Shown here: positions 3,835-60,977 of the stretch, piece after piece
How positions within the stretch are numbered: position 1 is the first letter of the stretch
How the letters are laid out: every line of letters begins with the position of its first letter
Assembly (NCBI GenBank): GCA_024278835.1
Contig: JAJRSK010000042.1
Coordinates: forward strand, 30 to 64,029
Reading direction: 5' to 3'
DNA: 64,000 bases
DNA from: Campylobacterales bacterium
GTDB taxonomy: Bacteria; Campylobacterota; Campylobacteria; Campylobacterales; QNZT01
The notes under the pieces: model-generated
Seen by the model: the letters and a program-made list of their open reading frames with translations, nothing else
The model's database searches: none
What the model was told of the DNA's origin: nothing
Program-made: the position numbers and the translations under genes

Positions 3835-3855
3835 TTCTCATATCTTAGCATTTTT

Positions 3856-3864
3856 TGCTATAAT
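3856..3864 (+). promoter_or_regulatory. Extended -10 element TGCTATAAT upstream of moaD
   Basis: TGnTATAAT lies 14 nt before ATG 3879. The same 9-mer precedes three other genes in the window. Confidence 0.35.
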
Positions 3865-3878
3865 CTTGCTAAAGGAAT

Positions 3879-4103
3879 ATGATGGCTAGATTAGAATTTT
3901 TAGGACCTATTAACCGTAAAGCGATGGATGTTGATATCTCTAACCTGAAGGAGTTGAAAACCTTACTAAAAGATGATAAAGAGTTACAAGAGTGGCTTGG
4001 AAACTCTGCAGTAGCGGTCAATGATACACTGGTGTCAACGCTTGATACACCCATAAAAGAGGGTGATAAAATCTCACTTTTGCCTCCTGTGTGTGGTGGC
4101 TGA
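3879..4103 (+). CDS. moaD: Molybdopterin synthase sulfur-carrier subunit MoaD
   Basis: 74 aa ending ...LLPPVCGG, the ubiquitin-like Gly-Gly terminus. ATGA overlap with the following moaE. Confidence 0.8.
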   Translation: MMARLEFLGPINRKAMDVDISNLKELKTLLKDDKELQEWLGNSAVAVNDTLVSTLDTPIKEGDKISLLPPVCGG

Positions 4104-4543
4104 TGTTAGCACTGTATGAGGGAGACTTACCGGTAGATGAAATCTTGAGTGATTGGTATAAAGAGTTTAAAGAGAAAAACTATGGTGCATTTATCAACTT
4201 TGTGGGGATTGTGCGTGATGAAGATGGTATAGATGGACTTAGTTTTGATATCTATGAACCTATTCTAAATAGCTGGTTTGATACTTGGCAATCCAAAGCG
4301 CAAGAGAGAGGGGCTTATCTACTGATGGCGCATTCTAAAGGGGATGTACTCAATCATGAGAGCTCTTACATCTCTGCGGTTCTTTCTCCAAAGAGACGGG
4401 TTGCATTGGAACTGATAGATGAGTTTGTAGAAGATTTCAAGGCATCTGCGCCTATATGGAAGTATGATATCATCAATGGTAAAAGAGAGTATGCGCTTGA
4501 TCGTAGTACAGCGTTAAAAAATTCTGGAATATTAAAGGGTTAA
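4103..4543 (+). CDS. moaE: Molybdopterin synthase catalytic subunit MoaE
   Basis: MLALYEGDL..., FVGIVRD and ...SAPIWKYD fit the MoaE pattern. Start placed at ATG 4103 (ATGA overlap with the moaD stop) rather than the ORF-track GTG 4091. Confidence 0.8.
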   Translation: MLALYEGDLPVDEILSDWYKEFKEKNYGAFINFVGIVRDEDGIDGLSFDIYEPILNSWFDTWQSKAQERGAYLLMAHSKGDVLNHESSYISAVLSPKRRVALELIDEFVEDFKASAPIWKYDIINGKREYALDRSTALKNSGILKG

Positions 4544-4545
4544 GT

Positions 4546-5763
4546 GTGGGTTTTGTAAGTTTTGAAGAGTCGATAGAGAAATTGTTAGGTAGTATGGATG
4601 CTTCTTATTCTCATTCTCATGAAAAAGTTTTTTTGGATGATGCTGTTGGGCGTGTGTTGGCTGAGGATATCGTAGCAGATCATAACTCTCCGGCATATCC
4701 TACTTCGGCGATGGATGGTTATGCGTTTAAATTTGATGATCAGAGTTTAGAACGTCTAAAAATACAAGGGGTGATCCCTGCTGGTGAGTATAAAGATGAA
4801 GAGATAGTTGGAGGGATGTGTATCAAAACTTTTACGGGCTCTTTAGTCTGTTGTGGTGCAGATACGCTGATTCCTATTGAAAATGTTGAAGTAGATGGTG
4901 ATGAAATCATCATCAAAGAAGAGGTTCCTTTTGGATGTTCTGTGCGTCCTGTGGGGGAAAACTATAAAGCGGGTGAAGTGCTCATTGCCAAGGGAGCGAA
5001 ACTAGATTTTGCAGAGATTGGTGTGCTGGCAAGTTTGAATGTTTCTCAAGTTGCAGTGTATAGAAAACCAAAAGTAGCGGTACTATCCACAGGGAGCGAA
5101 ATCCTTGATGTGGGTGAGAAACAAACCAACCCTTCACAAATACGCTCTTCCAATCAATTCACCTTAGCTGCACTTACTAAAAAAGTAGGGGCAGATGTGC
5201 ATCGCTCTCCTTTGGAAAAAGATGATAAAGAGACGATTGAGCGTAGTATCAAGGATGCTCTCTCTCATAGTGATATCGTGGTGACGACGGGTGGGGTGAG
5301 TGTCGGGGATTATGACTTTGTCAAGGATATCTTGGCTGGTTTGGATGCGGAGTATATCACCGAAGGTGTGACGCTGAAACCGGGACAACATATAAAAATA
5401 GTGAAGGTAGGGAAAAAGTATATCTTTGCACTTCCTGGTTTTCCTTATAGTTCGACGGTAACGTTTATACTTTATGTTATCCCGATGATTCGCTATATGA
5501 TGGGGATGGAGCCGAAACTGCCGATGAAAAAAGCAAAACTAAAGAGTGCTTATAAGAAAAAATCAAATAAAACAGAAGTAGCCGTAGGAAATCTACACTT
5601 TGTAGAGAATGAATATCTTATTGATTTTAAAGGAAAACGCGCAGGTTCTTCAGCGATATTGACCAATATGCTAGGGACTGTGGCGCTTATCATGATAGAT
5701 AAAGAGAGTGGTGATTTAGTAGCGGGTTCTATGGTGGATTTTATAGATATGGATGCGCTCTAG
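4546..5763 (+). CDS. moeA: Molybdopterin molybdenumtransferase MoeA
   Basis: 405 aa with MoeA motifs SPAYPTSAMDGYAF, VLSTGSEIL and VVTTGGVSVGDYDFV. GTG start. Confidence 0.85.
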   Translation: MGFVSFEESIEKLLGSMDASYSHSHEKVFLDDAVGRVLAEDIVADHNSPAYPTSAMDGYAFKFDDQSLERLKIQGVIPAGEYKDEEIVGGMCIKTFTGSLVCCGADTLIPIENVEVDGDEIIIKEEVPFGCSVRPVGENYKAGEVLIAKGAKLDFAEIGVLASLNVSQVAVYRKPKVAVLSTGSEILDVGEKQTNPSQIRSSNQFTLAALTKKVGADVHRSPLEKDDKETIERSIKDALSHSDIVVTTGGVSVGDYDFVKDILAGLDAEYITEGVTLKPGQHIKIVKVGKKYIFALPGFPYSSTVTFILYVIPMIRYMMGMEPKLPMKKAKLKSAYKKKSNKTEVAVGNLHFVENEYLIDFKGKRAGSSAILTNMLGTVALIMIDKESGDLVAGSMVDFIDMDAL

Positions 5764-5767
5764 GTCA

Positions 5768-6313
5768 ATGTTGCAAAAAAAACTTCTTAATCTACTACTA
5801 ACGCTTGGCGTTTTAGTCTATATCGTCTTTGAAGAGTTGATATGGGAGCGATTTGCTCTGCCTATCATCAACTATATCAACGCGTTGAAGGTGTTGAAAA
5901 GATTAGAGGTGTATCTACAAACAGTCAATAGCAAACTTATTTTGGTGATATTTGTTTTGTTGTTTGTGTTGGTTGAGTTTCAAGGTCTTTATGCAGGCGC
6001 ATTGTTTTTAGAGGGAAAGGTCTTGCATGGTGCGCTTCTTTATGCAGGGAAAATTCCTATCGCTGCTTTTACTTTCTGGCTTTTTCGTGTGACAAAGCCT
6101 AAACTTATGGAATTTGCATGGTTTGAAAAGTCTTATCTGTGGATGATGGGTATCATAGAGAAGATAAAAGCTAGTGAAGTCTATCGCAATATCAAGGCGC
6201 GTACAACAAAGATAAAAGCATTTGTCAAAGCGCAGTTTTTTAAAGATAAAAGTGCGATAAAAAGGAAGGTGCAGACTATTTATAAGAGGTTAAAGGCACT
6301 TTTTAAGATGTAA
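5768..6313 (+). CDS. Membrane protein, unknown function
   Basis: ORF with 3-4 hydrophobic helices and a Lys-rich tail. ATG 5768 chosen within the ORF-track frame. Confidence 0.4.
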   Translation: MLQKKLLNLLLTLGVLVYIVFEELIWERFALPIINYINALKVLKRLEVYLQTVNSKLILVIFVLLFVLVEFQGLYAGALFLEGKVLHGALLYAGKIPIAAFTFWLFRVTKPKLMEFAWFEKSYLWMMGIIEKIKASEVYRNIKARTTKIKAFVKAQFFKDKSAIKRKVQTIYKRLKALFKM

Positions 6314-6331
6314 ATAATTTCAGAGGTGCCA

Positions 6332-6865
6332 TTAAAAAAATAGGAATTTTTTCTTTTTCTCCACATATCCTATAAGTATATCTTGGGATAGAATGTGTCC
6401 CTGCATGGTATCTTCGATATTTTCTTTACTAAGACCTTTTGGGTTTAAATTTTCTATATCAAGTGCATAGATTCTAAATCTGTATCCATGTTTTCCACTT
6501 CCCTTTGGTGGGCAAGGGGCGATATAGGTTTTTTTCCCATTGGTTGTGAGGGCGAGTTTTGAACCCTTTGGATGGATTTCACCCTCGTTGATAGATGTCG
6601 TCGTAGATGGTATGTCATATACAATCCAATGATTCCACATGCCACCTACTGCATCTGGATCATCCACAATCAACACAAAGCTCTTAACATCTTTAGAGTG
6701 AAAATTCCAACTTAGTTGAGGGGATAAACTTTGACCATAACAGGTATGCTTTTGTGCGAGGGTCTCTTTATTTTTAAAATTTAAGCTTGTAAGTTTCATC
6801 TGTGGCTCCTGTGCTAGTAGTGCTGTAATAAGGAGAGTATATATAAAAAAGAATTTTATTTTCAT
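6332..6865 (-). CDS. YbhB/YbcL-family PEBP (Raf-kinase-inhibitor-like) periplasmic protein
   Basis: Signal peptide MKIKFFFIYTLLITALLA. Motifs FVLIVDDPDA, WNHWIVYDIP and GKHGYRFRIYALD are typical of bacterial PEBP. Confidence 0.75.
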   Translation of the reverse strand: MKIKFFFIYTLLITALLAQEPQMKLTSLNFKNKETLAQKHTCYGQSLSPQLSWNFHSKDVKSFVLIVDDPDAVGGMWNHWIVYDIPSTTTSINEGEIHPKGSKLALTTNGKKTYIAPCPPKGSGKHGYRFRIYALDIENLNPKGLSKENIEDTMQGHILSQDILIGYVEKKKKFLFF

Positions 6866-15477: not shown

Positions 15478-16122
15478 ATGTCAACTGCAACAATTTTGTT
15501 ATTGGAAGATGATGCACTACTACAGGCAACTATTCGTGAGATTTTAGAAGCTGCTGATTATGAAGTGGATGTAGCTAATGACGGCGAAGAGGCAGCAAAT
15601 CTTTGTTTTGACAATCATTACCAACTCTATATATTTGATATCAATGTACCAAAGATTAATGGTATTAACCTTTTGGAAGATTTAAGATGCGCAGGAGATG
15701 AAACACCTACCATATATATGACGGCGTTGGTTGATTTGGACTCCATTACCAAAGCATTTGATGCAGGTGCTGAAGATTATCTTAAAAAACCTTTTTATCC
15801 TCAAGAGTTACTTTTAAGGGTTAATGGTAGGTTAAAAAGTGCTCCAACCAATGCGATTATATATAAAACTATTGAGTATTATCCCTTGACAAAGGAGATT
15901 TTTAAAGAGGGGAAAATCATCTCTCTTGGTAGTGTACAAATTAAGATTTTTGATATGTTGATGCAAAATATAGGTAAATTAACACATAAAGAGACATTGA
16001 TTGATTTACTTGAACATCCCTCTGATACAGCACTTAGAGTTGCTATGACAAAACTAAAGCAAAAACTTGAGGTAGAGATAACAAATGTAAGAGGTTTGGG
16101 TTATATTCTTGAAAAAATATGA
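15478..16122 (+). CDS. OmpR/PhoB-family response regulator
   Basis: Receiver domain (ILLLEDD...IFDINVPKINGI...K) plus a winged-helix C-terminus (...VRGLGYILEKI). Confidence 0.85.
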   Translation: MSTATILLLEDDALLQATIREILEAADYEVDVANDGEEAANLCFDNHYQLYIFDINVPKINGINLLEDLRCAGDETPTIYMTALVDLDSITKAFDAGAEDYLKKPFYPQELLLRVNGRLKSAPTNAIIYKTIEYYPLTKEIFKEGKIISLGSVQIKIFDMLMQNIGKLTHKETLIDLLEHPSDTALRVAMTKLKQKLEVEITNVRGLGYILEKI

Positions 16123-17164
16123 AATTGAATCATTTTCAAAAAGTTTTTTACTTTTTTTTACTTCATTAGGACTTTTTTTGGTGCTTATCTCTTACCAAGA
16201 CTATAGGCAGATTATGGGTGATTTTGACCAAAATATATTTACACAGATGCGCCTTTGTAGTTTTGATTTAGAGTGCCCAGATTTTCAGATAGATTTTAAA
16301 GAAAAAGGAGATCAGAAACCACTCTTGCTCTATAAGTTAGATAATGGCATAGAAGCATATTTTGTTGTGCCAAGTTCAAAGGACTATTTTTTAACCATGA
16401 GATATGAAGGGGAAAAATATAAACTTGCAAAACAAGCTGTTATGAATGGAAGTATTGGAAAGTTTGTTTTTTATCTTTTATTGATTGCTTTGATATCTGT
16501 ACTTTTTTCATTGTATGCACTCTCTCCGATGAAAAGAGCTATTGTTCTGATAGAGGAGTTTATAAAAGATATCTTACATGATTTTAATACACCTATGTCC
16601 TCTATCATACTTAATAGTGCTCTTTTAGAGAGTGATGATAAAAATAGACAGAATATATTTAGAATCCAACAAAGTGCTCAACAAATCTTGAGGTTAGAAG
16701 AAAATTTAAAGTCTTATTTAGGAGAACTTCAAACACAAAAAGAGATTTTTGATTTAGTAGAGATGCTTAGGCAAGAGCAGAAATGTTTACAAAAAGTTTA
16801 TTCAGCGATAAATTGGAAAATAGAAGGTGAAACAATAAAATTATATACAAGTAAGGTAGCATTCTCTAGGATAATATCCAACATTTTGGAAAATGCAGCA
16901 AAATACAATAAGCGAAAGGGAAATATTACCATAAAAATAGACTCAAAAAATAGAAGTATGAAAATCATCGACACAGGTCTAGGGATAGAAAATCCAGAAA
17001 AGATATTTGAACGATTTTATAGTGAGCATGATAGAGGTACGGGTATAGGATTGCATATTGTGAAAAAACTTGCCAAAGAGTTAAATATTTTGATTGAAGT
17101 TGAAAGTAGTATAGGAAAGGGAAGTTCTTTTCAACTCAGTTTAAAAGAACTAACTAACCGCTAA
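16109..17164 (+). CDS. Sensor histidine kinase
   Basis: Two TM segments bracket a ~95-aa periplasmic loop. H-box ILHDFNTPMSS. N box ENAAKYN. G boxes DTGLGI and GTGIGL. TTG start overlaps the regulator gene. Confidence 0.85.
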   Translation: MKKYEIESFSKSFLLFFTSLGLFLVLISYQDYRQIMGDFDQNIFTQMRLCSFDLECPDFQIDFKEKGDQKPLLLYKLDNGIEAYFVVPSSKDYFLTMRYEGEKYKLAKQAVMNGSIGKFVFYLLLIALISVLFSLYALSPMKRAIVLIEEFIKDILHDFNTPMSSIILNSALLESDDKNRQNIFRIQQSAQQILRLEENLKSYLGELQTQKEIFDLVEMLRQEQKCLQKVYSAINWKIEGETIKLYTSKVAFSRIISNILENAAKYNKRKGNITIKIDSKNRSMKIIDTGLGIENPEKIFERFYSEHDRGTGIGLHIVKKLAKELNILIEVESSIGKGSSFQLSLKELTNR

Positions 17165-50508: not shown

Positions 50509-51039
50509 ATGTTACAACATATCAAGCAGGGGCTGATTGATTATATCCATGCCTTAACAGTCTATGACTATATTGCATTTGCTTGGTTGTTGTTTCTTTT
50601 TCTTATCATCCTGACCCTAGCTATTTTGCTGGGGCGTAAAAAACCTACCCTTGCTATCTTTCTTATCATGATAGTCATTCTTTTGATGTTTGTCGCCCCT
50701 TTTGGCATAAAATATTTTTTAGATAAAACGGTACGAAAAGTAGATGTTGTGACCGATAAAATCTCTAAGTTACATTTTGCTTCCTCCTTGATAGTCACAG
50801 GTCATCTGATAAATGTAGGTAAAATTCCTTACCAAAAATGCACTATCAACGCCAAAGTTTTTAAAATAAGTGAAAATAAATACAGAAATATTTTAAATAA
50901 TTTAAAGCCTTTGCGAAATAAGACGATAGTAGTAGATAAGAATATCTCAGAGGGGGAAGAGGCAATGTTTAAGATAGTATTTGACAAGTTTACCTATAGT
51001 AAAGAGTACAATGTCACGCTATCTGGGGAATGCTACTGA
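50509..51039 (+). CDS. DUF2393-like membrane protein, paralogue 1
   Basis: Two N-terminal TM segments plus a beta-rich domain. Architecture parallels the next ORF. Confidence 0.45.
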   Translation: MLQHIKQGLIDYIHALTVYDYIAFAWLLFLFLIILTLAILLGRKKPTLAIFLIMIVILLMFVAPFGIKYFLDKTVRKVDVVTDKISKLHFASSLIVTGHLINVGKIPYQKCTINAKVFKISENKYRNILNNLKPLRNKTIVVDKNISEGEEAMFKIVFDKFTYSKEYNVTLSGECY

Positions 51040-51572
51040 TGTATATGACGCTGATTCATTGGATAGCAGTCGTTATCTTTGTGCTTCTTTTTTTGATATT
51101 GATACTTCTCTCTTTAAAGGAGAAAAATAAAAAGACAATGCTGGGTATGATGTTTTCTTCTTTTCTTGTGACAACACTTGCCTGTGTCGTGTCGCTGTTT
51201 GTGATAGAAAAATATACTAAAAAAGCAAAAATTCTCTCCTATACACAAAAAAGAAATTTGGCAAATGAGACGATTATGTTTCAAGGTAGCATACAAAATA
51301 TAGGCAAGTTTAAAATCGGCTACTGTACTATCGAAGTAAAACTCTCTAACAATGCGATGAAAATGGGACGACCAAAAGAGGCTTTTTTCAAGCCAAGTAC
51401 CTCGCTTGGACCAATGTTCTCTTCGAAAGAGATGAAAGCATCTGTCGTAAAAGAGGAGTTTACCGTAGTAAAAAATTTGGATGCAAAAAAAGTAAAAAAC
51501 TTCCGAATTTACATGAAATACCCCCCTTATATGAAAGCGCCAGGACTCAAACTCACACTCAATTGTCACTAA
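51030..51572 (+). CDS. DUF2393-like membrane protein, paralogue 2
   Basis: Same architecture, overlapping the previous gene by 10 nt. Confidence 0.45.
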   Translation: MLLMYMTLIHWIAVVIFVLLFLILILLSLKEKNKKTMLGMMFSSFLVTTLACVVSLFVIEKYTKKAKILSYTQKRNLANETIMFQGSIQNIGKFKIGYCTIEVKLSNNAMKMGRPKEAFFKPSTSLGPMFSSKEMKASVVKEEFTVVKNLDAKKVKNFRIYMKYPPYMKAPGLKLTLNCH

Positions 51573-51605
51573 AATGCTGCTAATTTTATAAGATTTAAAA
51601 ATTTA

Positions 51606-51627
51606 GCAACATTTCGGCAACATTTAT
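51606..51627 (+). promoter_or_regulatory. Two tandem 11-bp GCAACATTT boxes upstream of the DUF11 cluster
   Basis: GCAACATTTCG GCAACATTTAT. This is the same xxAACAYTT core and 11-bp register as the CTAACAY boxes at 18806 and 15395-15416. Confidence 0.35.
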
Positions 51628-51761
51628 GATTTAATTATTTAAATTATTCTCTTTCTTTTTTCTGTATTCTCATTTAGTTAAAAATTATTCTTCATAGTAA
51701 ATATTATTTGTACTTAATTTTCTCTTTTCACATACGATATAAGGGTGTCGAAAATTTGATT

Positions 51762-52712
51762 ATGAGGCGGGAGATGAAGTACATTATAATCATATTTTTA
51801 GCCATAAATTTGTCCACTCTTTTTGCAAAGGGTGTAGCTGCTGGCACAGTGATACAAAACTCAGCAACGCTAAGTTTCACCATGGAGGAGGAGACTTTTA
51901 GTATAGAGAGCAATGTTGAAAAAAGTATTGTAGCCCAAGTGATAGATGTAAAAGTCTCATGGATGGATACAAGAGCTGTGGGAGTAAGTGCTGGGGAGAG
52001 CGACAAAGTCTTGACCTTTAGGGTGACAAATAGTGGCAATGGTAGAGATAGATTTACTCTAAAAGCAGATGAACTAGATTTCAAGTCAGCATTTTCTTTA
52101 ATGAGAAAAAAGATCTATTTAGATACCAACAACAATTTTCGTTTTGATGCGTCTGATCGGGAGAGAAAGGCGGTGACACTAGGAGCAGATAGAGAGAAAT
52201 TGGTTTTTGTAGTTTCAAAAATTGATAAAAGTTTATCTGTTGCAAGTGGTAGTCAAAACTTTGTGAGCTTGAAAGCTATTTCTAAGACTGGGGGGTCTGG
52301 GGAAAAGGGCACAGTTCATGAAGGAAAAGGTATTGATGGTGTTGACGCTGTTGATGGTTTTTTGGGAGGTATGAGTGAAGATGAAGGAGTATATACATTT
52401 TTAATCGCCAATGTGGTGATAAAGAAAGATGTCTATTTTTCTGATGGACTTGTTAGGGTTTTGCTTACAGTTACTGTCAGGGGAGAGGGACATGTAAGAG
52501 ATGTAAAAATCGTAGATAAAATACCTCAGGAAACTAAGTATGTTAAAGGGTCGTTGCGACTTGATGGTGACTTTATGAGTGACCAAAGAGATGCAGATTC
52601 TGGAAGATACAAAAAAAAGAGAGGTAAGCGTAAAGCAAGAGTAGTCATGAGTTTGGGTGAACTTGATACTTCAAGTTTTCACACCATTACATACAGTTTA
52701 AAAATAGGATAA
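51762..52712 (+). CDS. Secreted DUF11-type repeat-domain protein (P1)
   Basis: Signal peptide MRREMKYIIIIFLAINLSTLFA. N-terminal AAGTVIQNSATLSF. C-terminal VTVRGEGHVRDVKIVDKIPQETKYVKGSLRLDG fits the DUF11 / conserved repeat domain pattern. Confidence 0.55.
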   Translation: MRREMKYIIIIFLAINLSTLFAKGVAAGTVIQNSATLSFTMEEETFSIESNVEKSIVAQVIDVKVSWMDTRAVGVSAGESDKVLTFRVTNSGNGRDRFTLKADELDFKSAFSLMRKKIYLDTNNNFRFDASDRERKAVTLGADREKLVFVVSKIDKSLSVASGSQNFVSLKAISKTGGSGEKGTVHEGKGIDGVDAVDGFLGGMSEDEGVYTFLIANVVIKKDVYFSDGLVRVLLTVTVRGEGHVRDVKIVDKIPQETKYVKGSLRLDGDFMSDQRDADSGRYKKKRGKRKARVVMSLGELDTSSFHTITYSLKIG

Positions 52713-52722
52713 GGAAAAGAGT

Positions 52723-53211
52723 ATGAAAAAAGGCGTGTTAGCAACAGGGATAGTCGTAGCACTTATTTTTGCATCAAGTTTATCGGCAAAGACAGCAGAT
52801 GTAACATTGAGCACAAAATCTTATAAAGAGGTAGTCAAGATAAATAGTGCTGGGGAAAAGGAGTTTGTGTTAGAAGCGGCTAAAAAAGTGATACCAGGAG
52901 ATTATGTTGTCTATAAGAACTCTATCATCAATCATACCAATACAAGTGTCAACAACATGGTCTTAAACAATGCTATTCCGAAACATACAGAGTATGTAGC
53001 AGATAGTGCAAAATGCCAAAAAGATTGTGATATTTTATTTTCAGTAGATGGTGGAAAGAAGTTTGATAAGCCTGAGAAACTCATGGTCAAAGTTGGAGAT
53101 AAAGCACGTTTGGCATTGCCAAAAGAGTATACCAATGTGAGATGGGTTTTAACATCAGCATTAGAGGCAAATTCAGTCACGGATGTCAGTTTTAAGACGA
53201 GATTACAGTAG
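52723..53211 (+). CDS. Secreted single-DUF11-domain protein (P2)
   Basis: Signal peptide present. PGDYVVYKNSIINHTNTSVNNMVLNNAIPKHTEYVADSA...VRWVL. Confidence 0.55.
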   Translation: MKKGVLATGIVVALIFASSLSAKTADVTLSTKSYKEVVKINSAGEKEFVLEAAKKVIPGDYVVYKNSIINHTNTSVNNMVLNNAIPKHTEYVADSAKCQKDCDILFSVDGGKKFDKPEKLMVKVGDKARLALPKEYTNVRWVLTSALEANSVTDVSFKTRLQ

Positions 53212-53305
53212 TGGTGGAGTTGTACACTCAGGGAGGAAATGGAGGAAGATTTTCTCTTTGAGTGTATAACGCTTAGTAAAAAATTTTATTCCTATGGGGG
53301 GAAAT

Positions 53306-54391
53306 ATGTTTTTAAAATCAAAAAAGAAAGTAGTGGCAGCACTACTATCAGTAAGTGCAACAAGTGCATTTGCAGCAGGTACACTTTCAGGTACAAATGT
53401 TGACTCAACGGCGTCTTTATCATTTTCAGTAAATGGTACAACATCAGAAGTCACATCAACGAATAGCTATAAAGTGGATAATAAGGTGGATTTAACGGTT
53501 TCAACTGTGGATACACAAGCAGTAACAGTGAGTCCAGAAGCAACAAATGTTTTATTAACATATAAAGTACGAAATGATGGAAATACGGTACAAGATTTTA
53601 TACTTTCTTCATTAACAACATCAACAACGGTATTTGCAGCGGGTAATGCAGTAACAGATGATTATGATTTGACGAACGTGAGAGTCTTTGTAGATTCTAA
53701 CGGCAATGGTATCTATGATGAAGGAACAGATACGCAAACGTATATCGATGAGCTTGCTCCTGATGCAGATGTGACAGTATTTATCGTAGCAGATGTACCA
53801 GCTGATGCAGTCAATGATGCGGTGGCTATCTATGACTTGCAAGCGCAAGTAGCGCAAGGTGAAACAGTAGGTACGGAAGGCGCCGTCATCGCGACTGACA
53901 ATGCAGGTCAAGCAGATGATGCGGCAACAGTACAGATTGTATTTGCTGATGGTGCTGGAACAACGGATGTACAGTATGATGGTATCTTTTCAAGTGCAGA
54001 TGCTTGGAAAATCGTTACAGCAGATGTGACAGTTTCTAAAAATTCTATCGTGGTAAGTGATCCAGTTAATGGAACAACGAATCCAAAGAGAATTCCAGGT
54101 GCGGTTGTGAGATATTGTTATATCGTGCAAAATGCTACAGGTGGTGCAGAAGCGACAGGCGCACTGATTACGGATATATTAAATCCGACGGTACTTGATT
54201 TATCAGCGGCAACGGTTGCTACTTATACTGGAACAGGAACATGTACCTGTGACGCAGCAGATGCTGATATCACGGGTGAAAATGGTGCGCTTGGACAAAA
54301 TCCAGATGCACAAGGTCAAGTAAAAGTAGATTTTGACACGGTAGCGGGTGGTGTGACAGAATGTGCTTATGTTTCAGCTACTATCAAATAA
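53306..54391 (+). CDS. Secreted Thr/Ala/Asp/Val-rich DUF11-type protein, probable major structural subunit (P3)
   Basis: Signal peptide MFLKSKKKVVAALLSVSATSAFA. AAGTLSGTNVDSTASLSF is paralogous to the P1 N-terminus. PGAVVRYCYIVQNATGG. ATG 53306 chosen; there is an upstream in-frame ATG at 53294. Confidence 0.55.
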   Translation: MFLKSKKKVVAALLSVSATSAFAAGTLSGTNVDSTASLSFSVNGTTSEVTSTNSYKVDNKVDLTVSTVDTQAVTVSPEATNVLLTYKVRNDGNTVQDFILSSLTTSTTVFAAGNAVTDDYDLTNVRVFVDSNGNGIYDEGTDTQTYIDELAPDADVTVFIVADVPADAVNDAVAIYDLQAQVAQGETVGTEGAVIATDNAGQADDAATVQIVFADGAGTTDVQYDGIFSSADAWKIVTADVTVSKNSIVVSDPVNGTTNPKRIPGAVVRYCYIVQNATGGAEATGALITDILNPTVLDLSAATVATYTGTGTCTCDAADADITGENGALGQNPDAQGQVKVDFDTVAGGVTECAYVSATIK

Positions 54392-54408
54392 ATAGTTAGA
54401 CTGGATAT

Positions 54409-57400
54409 ATGATGCAAAGAGTGAAGTGGTTATATTACCCTTTGCTCTTTGTACTTATCTCTTTTTCTTCTTTGCAGGCTAGTTCTTTTACAGATATCAT
54501 TTTTGATGCGGCAGAAGTAGAATTTAAAATAGAAGCAGAAGATGAGATTTATGTGAGTACTTCAAATCACGTTAAAGTCAATGTAGAACTTAAAGAAAAG
54601 AAGCCACAAGTTACACAACCTACTCTCTCATTTTATCGCTACGATAAAGATTCTGATGCTTACCTAACTGTATCACAAACCGATTTTTCGCCCAATGAAG
54701 CTGTGAGTGGATCCTTTAATCCAATGACTCCTTTGTTGTTAGAAGATGGGAGTGAGATAGATATAAGCAAAAAGATACCAGCCATCAAATGCCTAGTATA
54801 TAAGCGCAATGAACCTTTGATAGTGCTCTATCATGATAGCAATGTAAGTGAAAAAAAAGCTATCAAATTGATTATCAGCACAAAAAAAGATAAGGAGATT
54901 ATCCGTTTAAGAAATAGCGATACAAATAGTTCTCTTTTTGTCGGCTATATTAACACCACAACAAAATGTCTCAAGAGATGTGACGGAAAGCTTTTTGTAG
55001 AAAAAGGGACACAAATCAGAGCATCTTTAGAGGAGTTAAAGAAGCGCAAAAGTAGATCTTTTACACCTATGATAGTGGCAGTTGCTAGTGTAGAGAGTGA
55101 AACACTTAGCACATTAGCAGAGGTGACAGAAAAAGAGGCAGATATATGGATAACGCTTCATGCTAGTAAAGATAAAGCCTCTTTGGGTGAGTTTATAAAA
55201 TATACCTGTACTATTGAAAACAGAGGTGAAGCGGATGTTGTGGATGCAAAGCTACATAATCTTCTCTCAGATGGTGTGGTATATAGAAGAGATACTTTTA
55301 TGTTTGAGGATAGTAAGCAGCGTAATCTTCGCTTTGCAAAAGATAAAAAGTCTTTTATTTTTCCTTTCTCTATCAAGGCAGGTGAAGAGAAGGAGTTTTC
55401 ATTTGTTACGCAGGTAGATATCGATGCTAAAAAGTCCATCCAAAGTCTCTGCTATGTAGCATTTGATACCAAGCAGTCAAATCAAAGTGCTGCTAACACA
55501 ACAATAGAGAGAGATTTTGATAACAAGTCGCTTATCGTAGGAGAACTAAGCCTTAAGGGAAGTGATGCAAATATCTCTTTAGCGGGTGTACGCTTTTACT
55601 TAGAAAATGGTACCTTTGTCCATAGTGATAAGAATGGAAAATTTCATTTTGAAGGTCTCTCTCTTGGTTCTCATGTTGTCAGTATAGATAGTGACAGTAT
55701 CTCTGGGAGATTTGTGAGCAAAGAGTGCAAGGCAAATGCTAGAAATATGGGCAGTAAAACTTCTATCTTTGTCGATACAGAATTTTCACACATTCAAAAA
55801 GTACGCTTCTGTTTAGAGGAGGATAAGCAGACTAAGGCACTAGATGCTTCGCTCTCATTTTCTGTGCCAGAGATAGCAAAGGAGACGATGCCCTCTTTTG
55901 GTGAAAAGGATTTTAAAAAGCATAAAAAGAGTGATATATTTTTATGGCCAAGAGAAGATTTTGTACCACCTATGCCTTCTCTAAAAGTAGCATTTTTACA
56001 TCAATCAGATGAAAAAGTTGTACTCTATCTCAATGGGGTAAAAGTAGATATGCTCAACTATGATGGGTTTGTTAAAGCGCGTAACAAAAAAAGAACTATC
56101 AGTAAATATCGTGGTATCGATATCATAGATGGGGACAATACACTAGAAGCAAAGGTTTATGCTAAAGATGGCGCTTTAAAAAAGGTGCTCAAGCGAAAAG
56201 TACACCTCTCTACTTCACCCGTACGAGCAAAAGTGATAGAGGAGAAATCCCTACTACTTTCAGATGGAAAAAATCCACCAGTCATTGCGGTGCAGTTTTT
56301 TGACGCGAGTGGATATCCTCTAAGGTCAGGGATGGTGGGGACATTTAGCGTTGAAAAACCATATATGTCAAAGGATAGATTGGACACCTTAAAAGATAAT
56401 CCCCTCTCTAGTATCAATGGAGAGGATAAATATACTATTTTAGAAGATGGCATTGCTTATATCGCTTTGCAAGAGACCACGACTTCGGGTGAAGTGAAGC
56501 TTCATTTTCCTTTTCAACAGAGCAATGAATATACAAAAGTATGGCTCTCATCAACACCAAGAGCGTGGTTTATCGTAGGGTTTGCAGAGGGGAGTGTAGG
56601 GTATAAGACTATCAAAGATACCTTAAAGCCAAGCAAGGCGTCACACCTCTATCATGATAAACAGATTTCATTTTTTGCCAAAGGAAAGATAGGCGCTGAC
56701 GCACTTTTGAGTATCGCTTATGATAGTGGAAAAGAGCGTAGCTTAGAAGTTTTAGAGGCGATAGATCCGCGTAGTGAATATACGGTATATGGGGATGAAA
56801 GCATGCAACAAAATGAAGCCCCAAGTAGTAAAAAACTCTATATTAAGATAGAAAAAAAGAGTTTCTATGCGCTCTTTGGAGACTTTGATACAGGGCTAGA
56901 TGCGCATGAATTGAGTCGCTATTCGCGTCGTGTAAATGGTATCAAGTCAGAACTCAAGGCTGAGCGATTTGAATATAACGCTTTTGTAAGTCAGAGTAAA
57001 ACAAGCTATATGAGGCAAGAGCTTCGAGGCGATGGCACAAGTGGACTCTATCATCTTAAAAGTAAGGCTATCATGATAGGCTCTGAAAAAGTGACTATCC
57101 AGGTGCGTGATAGATACCGTGATGAAGTGATTGTTTCAAAAAAAGTATTAAATCCTCTTTTGGATTATAATATAGATTATCAAGCAGGAACGCTCTACTT
57201 TAAAGAGCCTATATTGCGTAGAGATAGGGCTGGAAATCCGCAATTTATCATCATAGAAGCAGAGGTAGAGGATGGTGGCAAAAAGCGTCTCTCTTATGGT
57301 GGACGTGGGGCGATGAAGTTTTTTTCTGGCAAGCTAGAAGTAGGTATGAGTCTGCTTGGTGAGGAAGATAAAGATGATGAGATAGATACGCTCTATGGCT

Positions 57401-58905
57401 TTGATGCGAAAATAAATGCAAGTCAAAATCTTGTTTTCAATGCCGAATATGCCCAAAGTAAAAAAAATATAGAGAACAACAGCAGCGTTGCCAAGGCATA
57501 TCTAGCGGAACTTACCTATCATGATAGGTATAGTGAAACAAAGCTCTATTATAAGATGCAAGAGGATTTTTTTGGTTTTGGACAACAAAATCTCTCTCAA
57601 AGTGGTACAAGAAAATATGGTGTGGATTCCACTATAAATTATTGGGAAAATATGGCTATCAAGTTGGCGCTTTATGGAGATGAGGTGTTAAAGAGTGGTG
57701 AAAAGAAAAATGTAGCAGAAGCATTTTTGCAGTATCACAAAGCTAATTTCTTGGCAAATATAGGCTATCGCTATGGTAAATCCAACCTCAAAGGTGATAA
57801 AGGGGCTTCGCAACTGCTCTCTTCTATCTCAAAAAGATTTTTTCATAACAAGGTGAAACTTTCAGCCGCTTATGACTATACGCTTGGAGGAAAATCAGAT
57901 ATGCTTTTAAATCGTGCATTTGTGGAGGCATCCTATTTTGTCAATCAATATGTAGAAATCTTTGCCAATCATGAGATAGAAGAGGGTGAAACTATTAAAA
58001 CCAACCAGAGTCGTGCTGGTATCAAAGGTAGACCATGGCAGGGGGCAACAGTAGAGAGTGCAATGGTCAATGAATTTGATAATGATACGGTGCGTCTATT
58101 TGGACTTTTGGGTATCAATCAGAGTTGGCAAGTGCGTAAAAACCTTATCATCAACGGCTCAATTGAGCGAGAGCAGACAGTAGAGGGTGAGGGAGAGGAT
58201 TTTACAGCGTATGCTTTTGGTGTAAATTACCGTAAAAATAGGTGGGTTTATAGCGCAAAAACGGAGTATAGAACTGCCAAAACAGAGGATAAAATCAACC
58301 TAGACCTTGGGGTATATACAGAGGTGAATAAAAACTTGGGCTTGGCATTTGGCAGTAGAACACACCTTGTGAGAGATGAAGAGGGAGATTCCCATACAAC
58401 AAGTGCTAATTTCTCCTTGGCGTATAGACCCGAAGGTGGTGTGATGGTGATAAATCGTCTAGAGTACCTCTATGAGAGCGATGAGCATAGTAAAAGTGCC
58501 AAAACAGTTGAACGATTTTTGTGTGTGGCACATCCGAGCAAAAAGAGTACACTATCGGGGCATTATGGATTAAAATATACGCAAGATACGATAGATGACA
58601 AAGCGTATGATTCGTGGATTGATACGCTTGGTGTCGCGTACCTCTATGATGTAACAGATAAAATAGAGTTGGGATTTGGGGCTAGTTTATTGCACGCTTA
58701 TGATAGTCAAAGTTTGCTAGAGAGTTTGGGTGTGTATGTAGGGTATAACCTCTTTAAAAACGCTTATGTAGGTCTTGGATATAACTTTGTAGGGTATGAA
58801 GATCCAGATTTTAATAGTTTACGAAATAGTCAAGAGGGAGTTTTTGTGAAATTTCGCCTAAAATTTGACCAAGAGTCTTTAAAAAATATTGTTGATAAGT
58901 TTTAA
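54409..58905 (+). CDS. 1498-aa outer-membrane protein: DUF11-like and CarboxypepD_reg/Cna-B-like domains plus a very large C-terminal beta-barrel (P4)
   Basis: Signal peptide ...FSSLQASS. LGEFIKYTCTIENRGEADVVDAKLHNLL. GVRFYLENGTFVHSDKNGKFHFEGLSLGSHVV. The last ~750 aa are alternating Tyr/Gly-rich strands ending ...GVFVKFRLKF...DKF. Confidence 0.55.
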   Translation: MMQRVKWLYYPLLFVLISFSSLQASSFTDIIFDAAEVEFKIEAEDEIYVSTSNHVKVNVELKEKKPQVTQPTLSFYRYDKDSDAYLTVSQTDFSPNEAVSGSFNPMTPLLLEDGSEIDISKKIPAIKCLVYKRNEPLIVLYHDSNVSEKKAIKLIISTKKDKEIIRLRNSDTNSSLFVGYINTTTKCLKRCDGKLFVEKGTQIRASLEELKKRKSRSFTPMIVAVASVESETLSTLAEVTEKEADIWITLHASKDKASLGEFIKYTCTIENRGEADVVDAKLHNLLSDGVVYRRDTFMFEDSKQRNLRFAKDKKSFIFPFSIKAGEEKEFSFVTQVDIDAKKSIQSLCYVAFDTKQSNQSAANTTIERDFDNKSLIVGELSLKGSDANISLAGVRFYLENGTFVHSDKNGKFHFEGLSLGSHVVSIDSDSISGRFVSKECKANARNMGSKTSIFVDTEFSHIQKVRFCLEEDKQTKALDASLSFSVPEIAKETMPSFGEKDFKKHKKSDIFLWPREDFVPPMPSLKVAFLHQSDEKVVLYLNGVKVDMLNYDGFVKARNKKRTISKYRGIDIIDGDNTLEAKVYAKDGALKKVLKRKVHLSTSPVRAKVIEEKSLLLSDGKNPPVIAVQFFDASGYPLRSGMVGTFSVEKPYMSKDRLDTLKDNPLSSINGEDKYTILEDGIAYIALQETTTSGEVKLHFPFQQSNEYTKVWLSSTPRAWFIVGFAEGSVGYKTIKDTLKPSKASHLYHDKQISFFAKGKIGADALLSIAYDSGKERSLEVLEAIDPRSEYTVYGDESMQQNEAPSSKKLYIKIEKKSFYALFGDFDTGLDAHELSRYSRRVNGIKSELKAERFEYNAFVSQSKTSYMRQELRGDGTSGLYHLKSKAIMIGSEKVTIQVRDRYRDEVIVSKKVLNPLLDYNIDYQAGTLYFKEPILRRDRAGNPQFIIIEAEVEDGGKKRLSYGGRGAMKFFSGKLEVGMSLLGEEDKDDEIDTLYGFDAKINASQNLVFNAEYAQSKKNIENNSSVAKAYLAELTYHDRYSETKLYYKMQEDFFGFGQQNLSQSGTRKYGVDSTINYWENMAIKLALYGDEVLKSGEKKNVAEAFLQYHKANFLANIGYRYGKSNLKGDKGASQLLSSISKRFFHNKVKLSAAYDYTLGGKSDMLLNRAFVEASYFVNQYVEIFANHEIEEGETIKTNQSRAGIKGRPWQGATVESAMVNEFDNDTVRLFGLLGINQSWQVRKNLIINGSIEREQTVEGEGEDFTAYAFGVNYRKNRWVYSAKTEYRTAKTEDKINLDLGVYTEVNKNLGLAFGSRTHLVRDEEGDSHTTSANFSLAYRPEGGVMVINRLEYLYESDEHSKSAKTVERFLCVAHPSKKSTLSGHYGLKYTQDTIDDKAYDSWIDTLGVAYLYDVTDKIELGFGASLLHAYDSQSLLESLGVYVGYNLFKNAYVGLGYNFVGYEDPDFNSLRNSQEGVFVKFRLKFDQESLKNIVDKF
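57513..57530. repeat. Longest perfect version (18 bp) of the iterated palindrome
   Basis: TACCTATCATGATAGGTA equals its own reverse complement. It is one of at least 40 TATCATGATA copies (see findings). Confidence 0.9.
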
Positions 58906-58958
58906 ATTTTATTTGTAAAATGTCGATATAGGGAAAAGAATTAAAAAAAAGGATTTTT

Positions 58959-60977
58959 ATGAAATTTCTACTCAACCCGCTCATCAAATTTTTAAGCTCT
59001 ATCTCGTATAGTGCGAAGTTTATGTTTATCGGTGTCATTGCAGTTACCTATACATCATTTTTGGTCTATCAAAACTATGTATCACTCTCTTCTGATGTAG
59101 CCTTTTCTCAAAAAGAGTTAGATGGGGCAAAGTTGCTTCCAAGTGCGAAGTCGTTGATTCTTCAAACACAAAAGCTCCGTGGCACAACGGCACTTCTACT
59201 TAGTGGTGAAGCTTCTGTTTCTAGTAAAGTTGCTACACTCTCTCAAGATGCAAAAAAGCAGTTGGAACAGGTAAAGCGTGAGATAAGTTCATCACCTATA
59301 CAAGGCTTGGATAAATTGGTTTCCGAGATGGAGAATAAGCTAAACCACCTGAGCTCCTCTGCCCCATCAATGCCAGCAAAAGAGGCATTTGTTGCTTATA
59401 CGGCGCTCATAGAAAAAGAGTTGGATTTGATTGTGCTCATCGGCGATAACGCCAACCTTATCTTGGACCCCGATTTAGATAGCTTTTATATGATGGATGC
59501 GGTTATCAATAAATTGCCACAGATATTTGAAGCAACAGGCAAAGCGAGAGGATTAGGGGCATCTGTATTGAAAAAAGGTATGATTGACAAAGAGCAAGAG
59601 CTAAAATTGATGGAGTTAATCTCTGTAAACAACTATAATATACATGCTCTTGAAAATGGCTTTCAATCTGCTTATAGTGCAAATCCAGCTATTAAGGAGA
59701 GAGTAGATGGCAAGAAGGAACAATTAAAAAATCAGATAACTAGCTTCTCTAAGGATACACTCACTAATGCTGTTAAAGCAAGTGCTATGGAGGGGAAAGT
59801 ATATTTTCAAAAAGGTACCGATGTCATAGATACAGCAGATAGCCTCTATCATGATGCACTAGCAGAACTTGAAATATTGCTTCAAATCCGTGTCGATGCC
59901 CTAAAAGCAAAAGAGATGACACTGTTTATTGAAGCAACGCTTTTTTTCCTCTTTTTACTGGCATTTTTTATGGCATTTTATCACTCAGTAAGTGGCGCGG
60001 TTGGTGCTATGGTTAGCCAACTCAAGGAGATAGAAGAGAGCAAAGATTTATCGCGTGATATCATGATAGATACCAAAGATGAACTTAGTGAAATCGCTAA
60101 GGCGTATAACTCTTTTAGGGTTGCTTTGCATCAGACGATGCAAGATGCTATATCGGCAGTAGATTCAAGTACAAATGAAGCACAGAGCATGCAAGAGAGT
60201 TCTAAAGAGATGAGTGAAAACTCTAAAAATATGTCAGATATCATCTCTCAAGTAGCACAAAAAGGTGAAGATATCAGACATCAACTCGAAGATTCAAAAG
60301 CCTTAGCACAAAACTCAAAAGAGCAGATAAGTACCGCCTATGAGACGCTTCAAAGTGCAACTACTTCTATTCAAAACTTGGCTGCACAAGTGGAAGAGAG
60401 TTCACACAAAGAGATGGAGATGGCAGATAAAATCAACCAACTCAGCCAAGATGCCAATGATGTCAAAAATGTTCTACATGTCATCAACGACATTGCAGAA
60501 CAGACCAATCTCTTGGCACTCAATGCAGCGATTGAAGCAGCGCGTGCAGGGGAGCATGGTAGAGGATTTGCAGTCGTGGCGGATGAGGTGCGTCAACTAG
60601 CAGAAAAGACACAAAAATCTCTCTCTGAAATCAACGCTACTATCAATGTCATCATGCAAAATATCACTGAAGCTTCTTCTGAGATGAATCAAAATGCCAA
60701 AGATATCTCTTCGATGACAGAAACTTCAGAAGGAGTACTTAAAGAGGTAGAGTGGGTCAATACGATTATGGATGAAGCAACAAAACAGATAGAGCTTTCA
60801 GCCCAAAGCATCGAAAAAAATGCAGAAGGTGTTGAATCCATGGCAAATGAACTACAAGAGACGGATAAACTCTCAGTGAGTAATTCGAAAAAAGTGCACT
60901 CTATCACAGATAGTTCATCTACACTTGCAGGCAGAGTCAATGAAATTAAAGAGAAAGTTAACGCCTTTGTACTATAA
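58959..60977 (+). CDS. Methyl-accepting chemotaxis protein with NIT-like periplasmic sensor
   Basis: The sensor region with [16 protein letters not shown] recalls the nitrate/nitrite-sensing NIT domain. HAMP domain. Signalling hairpin [38 protein letters not shown]. Confidence 0.85.

Follow-up and report, generated by a model that had tools for sequence, protein, structure and literature searches.

Introduction

Two kinds of described systems come closest to the four-gene unit analyzed here, which occupies positions 51762-58905 of a window of 64,000 nucleotides (nt; contig JAJRSK010000042.1 of a Campylobacterales bacterium) and encodes the proteins P1 to P4. The first are the chaperone-usher pili (FimA-H, FimC, FimD), in which a compact operon specifies secreted subunits of immunoglobulin (Ig) fold and a large barrel protein bearing beta-sandwich domains; the subunits combine an incomplete C-terminal fold with an N-terminal donor element, and the tip subunit only accepts. 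All of these traits seem to recur in P1-P4. The usher barrel has 24 strands. The second are adhesins composed of domains of the DUF11 family (PF01345), renamed CLIPPER in 2025, which have a CnaA-like Ig fold (PMC12617251). CLIPPER domains are typical of the stalks of fibrillar adhesins, commonly contain disulfides and can hold a Lys-Asn isopeptide bond formed under Asp catalysis, although this triad is not universal in the family (PMC12617251). The published domains are complete and follow each other in tandem arrays within one long polypeptide; the text of that paper describes no dedicated barrel, operon or secretion for CLIPPER proteins, and the export and anchoring of CnaA/CLIPPER adhesins in Gram-negative bacteria are not addressed in it (PMC12617251).

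The P1-P4 unit may offer a concrete answer, namely a dedicated giant barrel together with subunits that carry an assembly code at both ends. Alignments indicate that in P1, P2 and P3 the CLIPPER domain at the C-terminus breaks off before its last hairpin, and that a hairpin matching the missing piece stands at the N-terminus of P1, P3 and P4, directly behind the signal peptide. The arrangement suggests a chaperone-free, usher-like fibre held together by hairpin complementation of the split CLIPPER domain and anchored by P4, a reading that in our judgment stands an even chance of being correct.

A CLIPPER domain in each of four signal-peptide proteins

The unit consists of four head-to-tail open reading frames (ORFs), all on the + strand and separated by gaps of 10, 94 and 17 nt, in agreement with the first-pass annotation of this DNA, which had been made from the letters alone. 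By reading the sequence, a Sec-type signal peptide with the succession basic, hydrophobic, A-x-A can be recognized in all four proteins, again as annotated, and none of the four has a lipoprotein Cys at the cleavage site.

The annotation had also noted a DUF11 segment in each protein, and profile searches bear this out. P2 exceeds the cut-off of TIGR01451 (27.2 bits, cut-off 24), whereas P1 and P4 fall just short of it (23.1 and 23.7 bits, respectively). In P1, the weak DUF11/TIGR01451 matches lie at residues 229-280; in P4, the match to PF01345 scores 22.5 bits against a cut-off of 24.6 and spans positions 1-113 of the 114 in the profile, and P4 homologues pass the cut-off. P3 alone has no DUF11 match in the Pfam and NCBIfam scans, but many of its homologues match PF01345. 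When the CLIPPER domain of P4 was compared by hhalign with the C-terminal domains of the other proteins, the matches reached 98.6% for P1, 97.3-97.7% for P2 and 96.0% for P3. Together, these profile comparisons place a CLIPPER (DUF11) domain in all four proteins and thereby assign them to the family. Fold searches were tried for the same purpose with P3 and P4 and were set aside, as they returned only generic matches with low template modelling (TM) scores; those of P3 were to tandem Ig-like proteins (integrin legs, MSCRAMMs, AgI/II).

P1 and P3 match each other in BLASTP over the first ~160 residues (E = 4e-14), and the profiles of their N-terminal domains match at 99.8%, which marks them as paralogues over their N-terminal halves, as had been proposed. 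The motif that follows the signal peptide of both proteins and their D-x-N-x-N-G-x-x-D loop, likewise pointed out earlier, are kept across 54 to 82 homologues; the loop is predicted to be of the calcium type. Mature P3 has an isoelectric point (pI) of 4.05 and consists to 51% of Thr, Val, Ala and Asp. Its description as rich in these residues holds, whereas the qualifier "almost Lys-free" was a slight overstatement, given 8 Lys (2.4%). An AlphaFold2 (AF2) model of P3 (predicted local distance difference test, pLDDT, 92.9; predicted TM score, pTM, 0.77) shows two beta-sandwich domains that follow a long hairpin at residues 31-56. P3 is the most conserved of the four proteins (74% identity where P4 of the same genome has 43%); its more than 625 homologues are 42-50% identical across phyla, and the N-terminal 290 residues are strongly conserved throughout. 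The last beta-strand of P1-P3 is also the end of each protein, and none of the three has a C-terminal sorting signal. We also note a C-x3-C pair (CQKDC) in P2 (residues 86-90, positions 52978-52992), and four Cys of P3 (271, 313, 315 and 353) that are kept among close relatives.

The CLIPPER domain of the subunits is split

In P3 homologues, the PF01345 matches end at position 84 of the 114 in the profile, which is the last residue of the protein. Consistently, in hhalign alignments the C-termini of P1, P2 and P3 reach only position 97-98 of the 133 in the complete CLIPPER domain of P4. Measured against these profiles, the CLIPPER domain with which P1, P2 and P3 each end lacks the last hairpin, b8-b9. 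In the solved CLIPPER domain, this is the hairpin that bears the isopeptide Asn (9IFR; PMC12617251). P1, P3 and P4 share a hairpin immediately after the signal peptide with the motif I-x-N-x-A-x-h-x-aromatic ... S-N, which in P4 takes the form I-x-N-x-A-x-A-x-W/F/Y; residues 28-62 of P4 and 28-60 of P1 match by hhalign at 90.9%. The N-terminal 27 residues of P2 have no match to the b8-b9 strands.

The relationship between the two ends was probed with permuted profiles, in which the N-terminal hairpin of a protein was appended to the profile of its own C-terminal domain before comparison with the P4 CLIPPER domain by hhalign; 40 column shuffles and the reversed hairpin served as controls. Appending the hairpin raised the score of P3 from 57.7 to 70.5 (shuffles 57.8 +/- 1.3, maximum 62.0; reversed 56.7) and that of P1 from 76.7 to 97.3 (shuffles 78.5 +/- 1.8, maximum 84.0; reversed 77.4), and the alignment then continued through b8-b9 of the P4 domain. 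On permuted sequences, Pfam matches gained 5.8 to 11.2 bits for DUF7619 and 0.7 to 5.8 bits for DUF11, compared with at most 1.7 bits in the reversed controls. The first-pass annotation had offered complementation by the N-terminal strand as a speculation; the truncated domains of P1-P3 and the matching hairpin of P1, P3 and P4 argue for it, with a version within one molecule as the alternative weighed below.

In the alignments, the residues of the isopeptide triad are conserved across the split, with Lys and Asp in the acceptor domain and Asn in the donor hairpin. The acceptor Lys is present in 81/82 P3 homologues (K245) and 61/63 P1 orthologues (K222), the acceptor Asp in 82/82 (P3 D290) and 61/63 (P1 D252), and the donor Asn in 73/82 (P3 position 34), 55/63 (P1 N33) and 59/67 (P4). 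P3 also keeps D252 and N276 in 82/82 homologues and, within the hairpin, T26 in 81/82 and G29 in 79/82. A canonical intramolecular isopeptide in P3 was considered and rejected, because no Asn or Asp is conserved beyond D290.

To see how donors and acceptors are combined, every ORF of 86 loci was classified; the ORFs were called mechanically, some with over-extended N-termini, and the donor test was kept tolerant. Three classes emerged. Donor and acceptor occur together in 114 proteins of 287-895 amino acids (aa) of the P1/P3 type. Another 77 proteins are acceptors only, comprising the P2 type and optional larger proteins (466-1042 aa) whose N-terminal domains are unrelated. The remaining 75 are donors only, nearly all of them barrel proteins with a complete CLIPPER domain of their own; conversely, nearly all barrel proteins of these loci have the P4-type N-terminal hairpin. 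The ratio of donors to acceptors is 3:3 in 21 loci and 2:2 in 19, and acceptors exceed donors in 12. The existence of acceptor-only and donor-only proteins implies that at least some complementation takes place between molecules.

The optional acceptor-only proteins of 466-1042 aa have a P3-like truncated C-terminal domain and no donor hairpin, and none is encoded in the window. Their genes lie upstream of the unit in eight loci (L027, L037, L040, L050, L052, L053, L065 and L066) and downstream in eleven (L017, L031, L036, L041, L043, L045, L055, L058, L060, L064 and L082). They may be tip adhesins.

P4 and its predicted outer-membrane barrel

P4 was modelled with AF2 over residues 370-1498 on the basis of 28 homologues (pLDDT 78.9, pTM 0.69). 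In the model, the conserved C-terminal module begins with three early strands, followed by a short-stranded insert (residues 810-931), 32 consecutive long strands (residues 944-1486, positions 57238-58866, as read from the secondary-structure string) and a terminal helix. The insert may be plug-like. Foldseek searches of the PDB with the P4 C-terminus returned only large outer-membrane barrels, with a probability of ~1.00 and TM scores of at most 0.34: LptD, Deinococcus SlpA, SprA of the type IX secretion system (T9SS), the FimD usher, TonB-dependent receptors including SusC, and MtrB. For the C-terminus of P4, the prediction is thus a giant barrel in the outer membrane that has 32 strands or more and no close solved relative, which agrees with the very large barrel foreseen in the annotation and compares with 24 strands in ushers and 26 in LptD.

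Sequence searches of the PDB with P4, with P2 and with a P3 profile brought no useful match, and the P4 family profile hit OmpA-type domains only. Most P4 relatives have a mid-protein OmpA_C-type domain (PF00691), which follows the Ig-like domains and precedes the barrel; it occupies positions 735-860 of the P4-family alignment and matches solved OmpA/MotB/Pal-type domains with a best E of 1.5e-18. P4 of the window, with 1498 aa, is a short form that has no Pfam match to PF00691. The presence of a peptidoglycan-binding domain of this type before the barrel in most relatives suggests a periplasmic location for the middle of P4 at least.

The family consensus of the P4 CLIPPER domain keeps Lys, Asp and Asn, whereas P4 of the window has Asn at the place expected for Asp. 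The sequence of the 9IFR chain, read off an alignment and used as a query for membership in the P4 family, gave no match. The CarboxypepD_reg/Cna-B-like domain reported earlier is weak in P4 of the window (SpaA fold, E = 0.062) and is recovered at the same place in homologues with E ~1e-10. One homologue has Invasin_D3/Big_1-like matches in the region equivalent to residues 510-715. A second acceptor domain inside P4 was looked for and rejected, given that residues 63-240 and 470-720 have no similarity to CLIPPER or to the N-terminal domain of P1/P3.

A self-contained unit found across diderm phyla

A P3 profile was run against a collection of one genome per species, and 80 loci were fetched for context. 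The search yielded at least 574 confirmed stretches, in Campylobacterota, Zixibacteria, Eisenbacteria, Krumholzibacteria, Sphingomonadaceae, Gammaproteobacteria, Burkholderiales, Spirochaetales and Thermodesulfobacteriota, cultured strains included. Among these matches, the hosts are exclusively diderm and amount to hundreds of species in at least eight phylum-level groups, so that the unit, whose conservation the annotation had proposed to check within Campylobacterota, is kept far beyond that phylum. A P4-type gene stands beside P3 in 68/68 loci with enough downstream flank, and P2 lies upstream of P3 in 70/74. The commonest order is P1-P2-P3-P4, with P1 orthologues at the same position in most related loci. 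In three metagenome-assembled genomes of Campylobacterales (L011, L012 and L014), the order is P3-P1-P2-P4 or P3-P2-P1-P4, the barrel gene always being last.

Clustering of the remaining ORFs of the 80 loci revealed no other co-conserved family, whether chaperone, sortase, ATPase or protease, and no enzyme, ATP-binding cassette (ABC) transporter or regulator genes that accompany the unit. Scans of P1-P4 themselves likewise gave no match to a chaperone family; the annotation, too, had noted no chaperone, ATPase, sortase or known secretion component. The four-gene unit is self-contained: no further gene family is co-conserved with it, and its neighbours are syntenic only in close relatives.

Close relatives of P4 are found in Campylobacterales; the distant ones measure 1600-2080 aa and come from Nitrospirota and Acinetobacter, among others. 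The C-terminal module (residues 721-1498) is more widespread, with 2,920 clusters at 50% identity, 1,042 of them at E <= 1e-30; in the 150 best matches, the alignment covers the module wholly or for the most part and ends at or near the C-terminus of proteins of up to ~3000 aa. The layout of the unit recurs in Nitrospirota and, in a modified form (164/895/2029 aa), in Acinetobacter, in which the 895-aa donor and acceptor protein bears the same kind of ends on either side of a much longer middle. In a plasmid collection, only one full-length copy was found, unannotated, on a Novosphingobium megaplasmid; a record of Sphingomonas paeninsulae matched over just 21% of the query.

A proposed fibre assembled by hairpin complementation

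In the proposed fibre, P1-P4 would be exported by Sec, and P4 would insert into the outer membrane through its C-terminal barrel. The hairpin of one protein would enter the open CLIPPER domain of the next, giving a head-to-tail chain with the acceptor-only P2, or in other genomes a larger acceptor-only protein, at the tip, P1 as the adaptor and repeated P3 as the shaft. At the base, the donor-only hairpin of P4 would tie the chain to the cell, in place of a separate chaperone or terminator. In most family members, a Lys-Asn isopeptide bond could lock each joint, with Lys and Asp supplied by the acceptor and Asn by the donor hairpin; the split domain would then resemble a natural SpyTag/SpyCatcher, in which the Asn hairpin snaps into the open CLIPPER domain that bears Lys and Asp. 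The chain would pass through the barrel lumen to the surface and serve in adhesion or matrix building. Trans complementation, the order of the chain, its covalent locking and its function are parts of the model that we infer, and barrel passage and surface exposure of the chain are suggested by analogy.

P3 was proposed as the shaft on account of its conservation, its acidic character and the strong ribosome-binding site of its gene. As for the overall layout, the annotation had likened subunits plus a giant barrel to chaperone-usher logic. The subunits and the predicted barrel agree with its description; its picture of P4 needs amendment, because P4, too, bears the N-terminal hairpin and so looks like the anchor of the chain rather than a pore alone. 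Polymerization of this kind has a precedent in AbpX, which undergoes chaperone-free, calcium-triggered donor-strand polymerization (bioRxiv 10.64898/2026.01.04.697558).

Several observations weigh against such a fibre. The confident monomer model of P3 (pLDDT ~95 over the hairpin) fits a closed, self-complemented P3 equally well, and an isopeptide formed inside one molecule would block later swapping. The search for isopeptide triads suggested by the annotation was successful for the family, as detailed above, and less so for the window, in which P1 keeps the donor Asn while P3 has Ser and P4 has Asp in its place; here, the Lys-Asn lock would be available for the joint made by the P1 donor alone. 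The conservation of P3 is unusually high for a surface-exposed pilin. Finally, since the OmpA-type domain separates the Ig-like part from the barrel in most P4 relatives, the P4 donor end could lie in the periplasm, and the assembled structure might remain inside the cell.

The broader proposal, that the unit represents a new class of pilus or secretion system in diderms, in which CnaA-type subunits polymerize covalently without sortase, chaperone or ATP by means of a split isopeptide domain and are threaded through, and in the end anchored by, a barrel of 32 or more strands that itself supplies the last donor hairpin, is a tentative one that on balance we find doubtful. If the fibre model is correct, it would add a class to the chaperone-usher, type IV, type V, curli and sortase pathways, would explain several thousand proteins annotated as "hypothetical" or "DUF11 repeat" (~2,900 barrel clusters and >574 P3 stretches) and would provide a natural self-ligating protein polymer that protein engineers might exploit. 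Should P1 and P3 turn out to be closed monomers, a circularly split isopeptide domain co-conserved with one of the largest predicted outer-membrane barrels would still be new structural biology. Cultured carriers of the unit include Novosphingobium (N. arvoryzae KCTC 32422, whose orthologue keeps the donor Asn), Qipengyuania (Q. vulgaris DSM 17792), Erythrobacter, Parasphingorhabdus (P. flavimaris SW-151) and Acinetobacter venetianus, and metagenomes contain P3 sequences by the thousand.

Alternative explanations

The split might instead reflect a circular permutation, with the hairpin of P1 or P3 completing the C-terminal CLIPPER domain of the same molecule, perhaps stapled by a Lys-Asn bond, to give a compact protein that does not polymerize. 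Pairing between molecules would then be left to P2 and the spare hairpin of P4 alone. The result would be a complex of fixed composition in the outer membrane, made of P4-P2 with P1 and P3 either attached or free, which would work as an adhesin or as a structure of the envelope. We consider this unlikely. The highly confident AF2 monomer of P3, hairpin included, has the defined two-domain arrangement that such a protein would show, but AF2 monomers often self-complement donor strands, so that the model does not discriminate. In the core set, donors (P1, P3 and P4) equal acceptors (P1, P2 and P3) in number, yet in the 12 loci where extra acceptor-only proteins create a surplus of acceptors, some of the P1/P3 hairpins would have to be given away. 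The strong conservation of the N-terminal 290 residues of P3 is what one would expect of a compact protein with fixed partners. The likely geometry points the other way: in tandem arrays, b9 runs into the next domain, which corresponds to complementation in trans, whereas complementation in cis would need the N-terminal domain to be folded back.

Another arrangement would be a two-dimensional coat or S-layer, with P3 forming a lattice on the outer membrane, P4 serving as anchor and export pore, and P1 and P2 as minor components. The composition, pI and calcium-type loop of P3 are like those of many S-layer proteins, its high conservation would suit the many contacts of a lattice, and the best fold matches of P4 include the SlpA protein of Deinococcus, whose 30-strand barrel serves as an S-layer anchor. 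That last match is generic (TM 0.2-0.26), however, P3 is small (36 kDa) and has neither a sequence nor a fold match to a known S-layer protein in the PDB searches, and a grammar of one donor and one acceptor leads to a linear chain, not to a lattice. We regard a coat as improbable.

There is also a slim chance that P4 is a fibrillar adhesin that exports itself in the manner of an autotransporter, its Ig-like stalk threading its own barrel while P1-P3 extend or decorate the tip. In P4 and its relatives, the N-terminal half is indeed made of adhesin-stalk domains (CLIPPER, SdrD_B, CarboxypepD_reg and Big/Invasin-like), the barrel is C-terminal as in classical autotransporters, and stalks of fibrillar adhesins are where CLIPPER domains typically occur (PMC12617251). 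Against this, the OmpA-type domain between stalk and barrel would keep the barrel-proximal part of P4 inside, even though more N-terminal parts of the stalk could still thread out. In type V systems, 12-16 strands suffice for self-export, and at least 32 are far beyond that need. P4 has no autotransporter match in Pfam, and the crossing of the outer membrane by P1-P3 would be left unexplained unless the same pore served them.

A complex for uptake or transport, with P4 as a large gated pore and P1-P3 as periplasmic or surface binding proteins as in SusC/SusD or porin-cytochrome complexes, is very improbable: P4 does have fold matches to TonB-dependent receptors, SusC and MtrB, and CarboxypepD_reg precedes the barrel as in SusC-type proteins, but P4 has no plug or TonB-box family match in Pfam, P1-P3 are not lipoproteins, no enzyme, transporter or regulator genes are co-conserved, and the split-domain grammar would go unexplained.

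Relationship to known systems

In its proposed working, the unit is most like the chaperone-usher pili, yet it is not one of them, because it has no chaperone, no usher or fimbrial match, a different subunit fold and a larger predicted barrel. No PapD-like chaperone is present in the unit or co-conserved with the four proteins over the 80 loci. P1-P4 have no Usher or Fimbrial match in Pfam, and the P4 family profile finds no usher in the PDB; in the fold searches, P4 matched FimD as a generic barrel (TM at most 0.34), and P3 matched SafDAA. The P4 barrel, with its 32 or more predicted strands, itself bears a donor element, unlike the usher. Moreover, what is missing here is a hairpin of two strands from a domain of CnaA type, whereas pilins lack a single strand of their own fold, and the isopeptide triad is split across the joint.

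With the published CLIPPER adhesins (9IFR; PMC12617251), P1-P4 share the domain family, the triad positions can be mapped from one to the other, and the P4 copy is complete. What sets the unit apart is the cut after b7 in P1-P3 and the placement of b8-b9 at the N-terminus of P1, P3 and P4.

The sortase pili (SpaA, Spy0128 and BcpA) resemble the proposed fibre in having Ig pilins of CnaA/CnaB type, Lys-Asn isopeptide chemistry and a division into tip, shaft and base. However, there is no sortase in or near the unit and no LPXTG motif, the hosts are diderm only, and the proposed link would form autocatalytically inside the complemented domain and not by transpeptidation. The type V pili of Bacteroidia (FimA/Mfa1) polymerize by strand exchange without a classical chaperone, as P1-P3 might, but their pilins are lipoprotein precursors that are primed by proteolysis and donate a C-terminal strand, whereas P1-P3 have no lipobox Cys, would donate from the N-terminus and have no FimA-family match in Pfam. 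An isopeptide bond has been reported in a Gram-negative pilin, according to a citation in PMC12617251. Autotransporters (type V secretion) differ from P4, which has no Pfam match to the Autotransporter or intimin/invasin barrels and whose module measures ~780 residues. The unit thus belongs with none of the sortase pili, type V pili and autotransporters.

Archaeal threads (Saci_0406) and TasA/AbpX exemplify donor-strand complementation without a dedicated periplasmic chaperone, and the threads have additional covalent bonds between subunits (PMC9715654). Unlike the unit, these systems have no outer-membrane barrel partner; their folds are different, they have no sequence relation to P1-P4, and they are not among the top 50 fold matches of P3. 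As regards the barrel, LptD (26 strands), Deinococcus SlpA (30), SprA (36) and MtrB (26) are the top fold matches of the P4 module, but the TM scores of 0.11-0.30, the lack of sequence similarity and the different partners and gene contexts set them apart from it. Lumens of barrels of this size can hold folded proteins.

No homology to a characterized adhesin, pilus or secretion pathway was found in Pfam, NCBIfam, PDB sequences and folds or the literature searched. The module has no description in these databases or in the searched part of the literature, which is not the whole literature, and on this account the unit may represent a new route to a surface fibre. Matches to "DUF11 + usher" in the literature proved to be word-start artefacts (DUF115, DUF1127), and the papers on the Litorilinea grappling hook and on F-ENA concern unrelated DUF11 proteins. 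None of the computational checks suggested by the first-pass annotation that were run contradicted its idea.

Gene layout, flanking DNA and neighbouring genes

The features of the unit and the adjacent genes are compiled in Table 1.

Table 1 Features of the P1-P4 unit and of the adjacent genes, in positions of the 64,000-nt window
Feature	Positions	Strand	Remarks
DUF2393-family small membrane protein genes (two, tandem, overlapping)	50509-51039, 51030-51572	+	directly upstream of the unit
Upstream non-coding stretch, AT-rich, 189 nt	51573-51761	+	putative promoter region of the unit
P1 gene	51762-52712	+	316 aa ORF; donor and acceptor; putative minor/adaptor subunit
P1 N-terminal hairpin	51828-51932	+	residues 23-57; motif A-G-T-x-I-x-N-x-A-x-h-x-Y/F ... 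S-N; putative donor
P1 truncated CLIPPER domain	52401-52709	+	residues 214-316; putative acceptor; hhalign to P4 CLIPPER 98.6%
P2 gene	52723-53211	+	162 aa ORF; acceptor only; putative cap/tip
P3 gene	53306-54391	+	361 aa ORF; donor and acceptor; putative major (shaft) subunit
P3 N-terminal hairpin	53375-53479	+	residues 24-58; two predicted 12-residue strands, pLDDT ~95; putative donor
P3 truncated CLIPPER domain	54014-54388	+	residues 237-361; putative acceptor
P4 gene	54409-58905	+	1498 aa ORF; signal peptide, donor-type hairpin, Ig-like domains, predicted giant C-terminal barrel module
P4 N-terminal hairpin	54481-54594	+	residues 25-62; homologous to P1/P3 hairpin; putative donor only
P4 CLIPPER/DUF11 domain, complete	55141-55500	+	residues 245-364; PF01345 profile 1-113 of 114; own b8-b9 hairpin
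P4 CarboxypepD_reg/prealbumin-like beta-sandwich	55525-55821	+	residues 373-471; AF2 strands at model residues 4-102
Two more P4 beta-sandwich domains	55936-56553	+	residues 510-609 and 625-715; from AF2 secondary structure
P4 C-terminal conserved module	56569-58902	+	residues 721-1498; outer-membrane barrel predicted by AF2
Methyl-accepting chemotaxis protein gene	58959-60977	+	53 nt after P4

Three segments of the + strand in the non-coding stretch before P1 (51603-51630, 51678-51707 and 51727-51755) look like promoters, by consensus match only. P1 may start at either of two in-frame ATGs 12 nt apart, at 51762 and 51774; the second is immediately preceded by GGAG and would give a protein of 312 aa, compared with 311-314 aa in orthologues. 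A strong, G-rich ribosome-binding site precedes the start of P3 at 53306. No terminator-like site was found on the + strand within the unit, and scans of the region for DNA repeats, terminators and Rfam families gave nothing relevant besides the genome-wide palindrome described below.

The two DUF2393 genes and the chemoreceptor gene were considered as parts of the system and rejected, as their synteny with the unit is confined to close Campylobacterales relatives; for the same reason, the DUF2393 genes upstream are probably unrelated neighbours. The chemoreceptor gene also follows P4 in the closest relative and not in more distant loci; a promoter-like site (58892-58921) that overlaps the 3' end of P4 lies ahead of it in the window. 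In a Nitrospirota locus, the gene after P4 encodes a GGDEF response regulator. The loci of Acinetobacter venetianus (L001/L002) additionally encode a 1329-aa protein with CLIPPER, SpaA_4 and SdrD_B domains (2429-6418) and have an extra 230-aa gene that overlaps the end of the barrel gene (16035-16727).

The window contains the 10-bp palindrome TATCATGATA 40 times (e.g., at 787, 813, 5688 ... 63596), although its base composition would predict only 0.2 occurrences. Its core ATCATGAT has 49 occurrences and the 12-mer CTATCATGATAG has 12. As the annotation had counted, P1-P3 are free of TATCATGATA and the P4 coding sequence holds four copies, at 54829, 56650, 57069 and 57517. The motif resembles the highly iterated palindromes of the HIP1 type in cyanobacteria.

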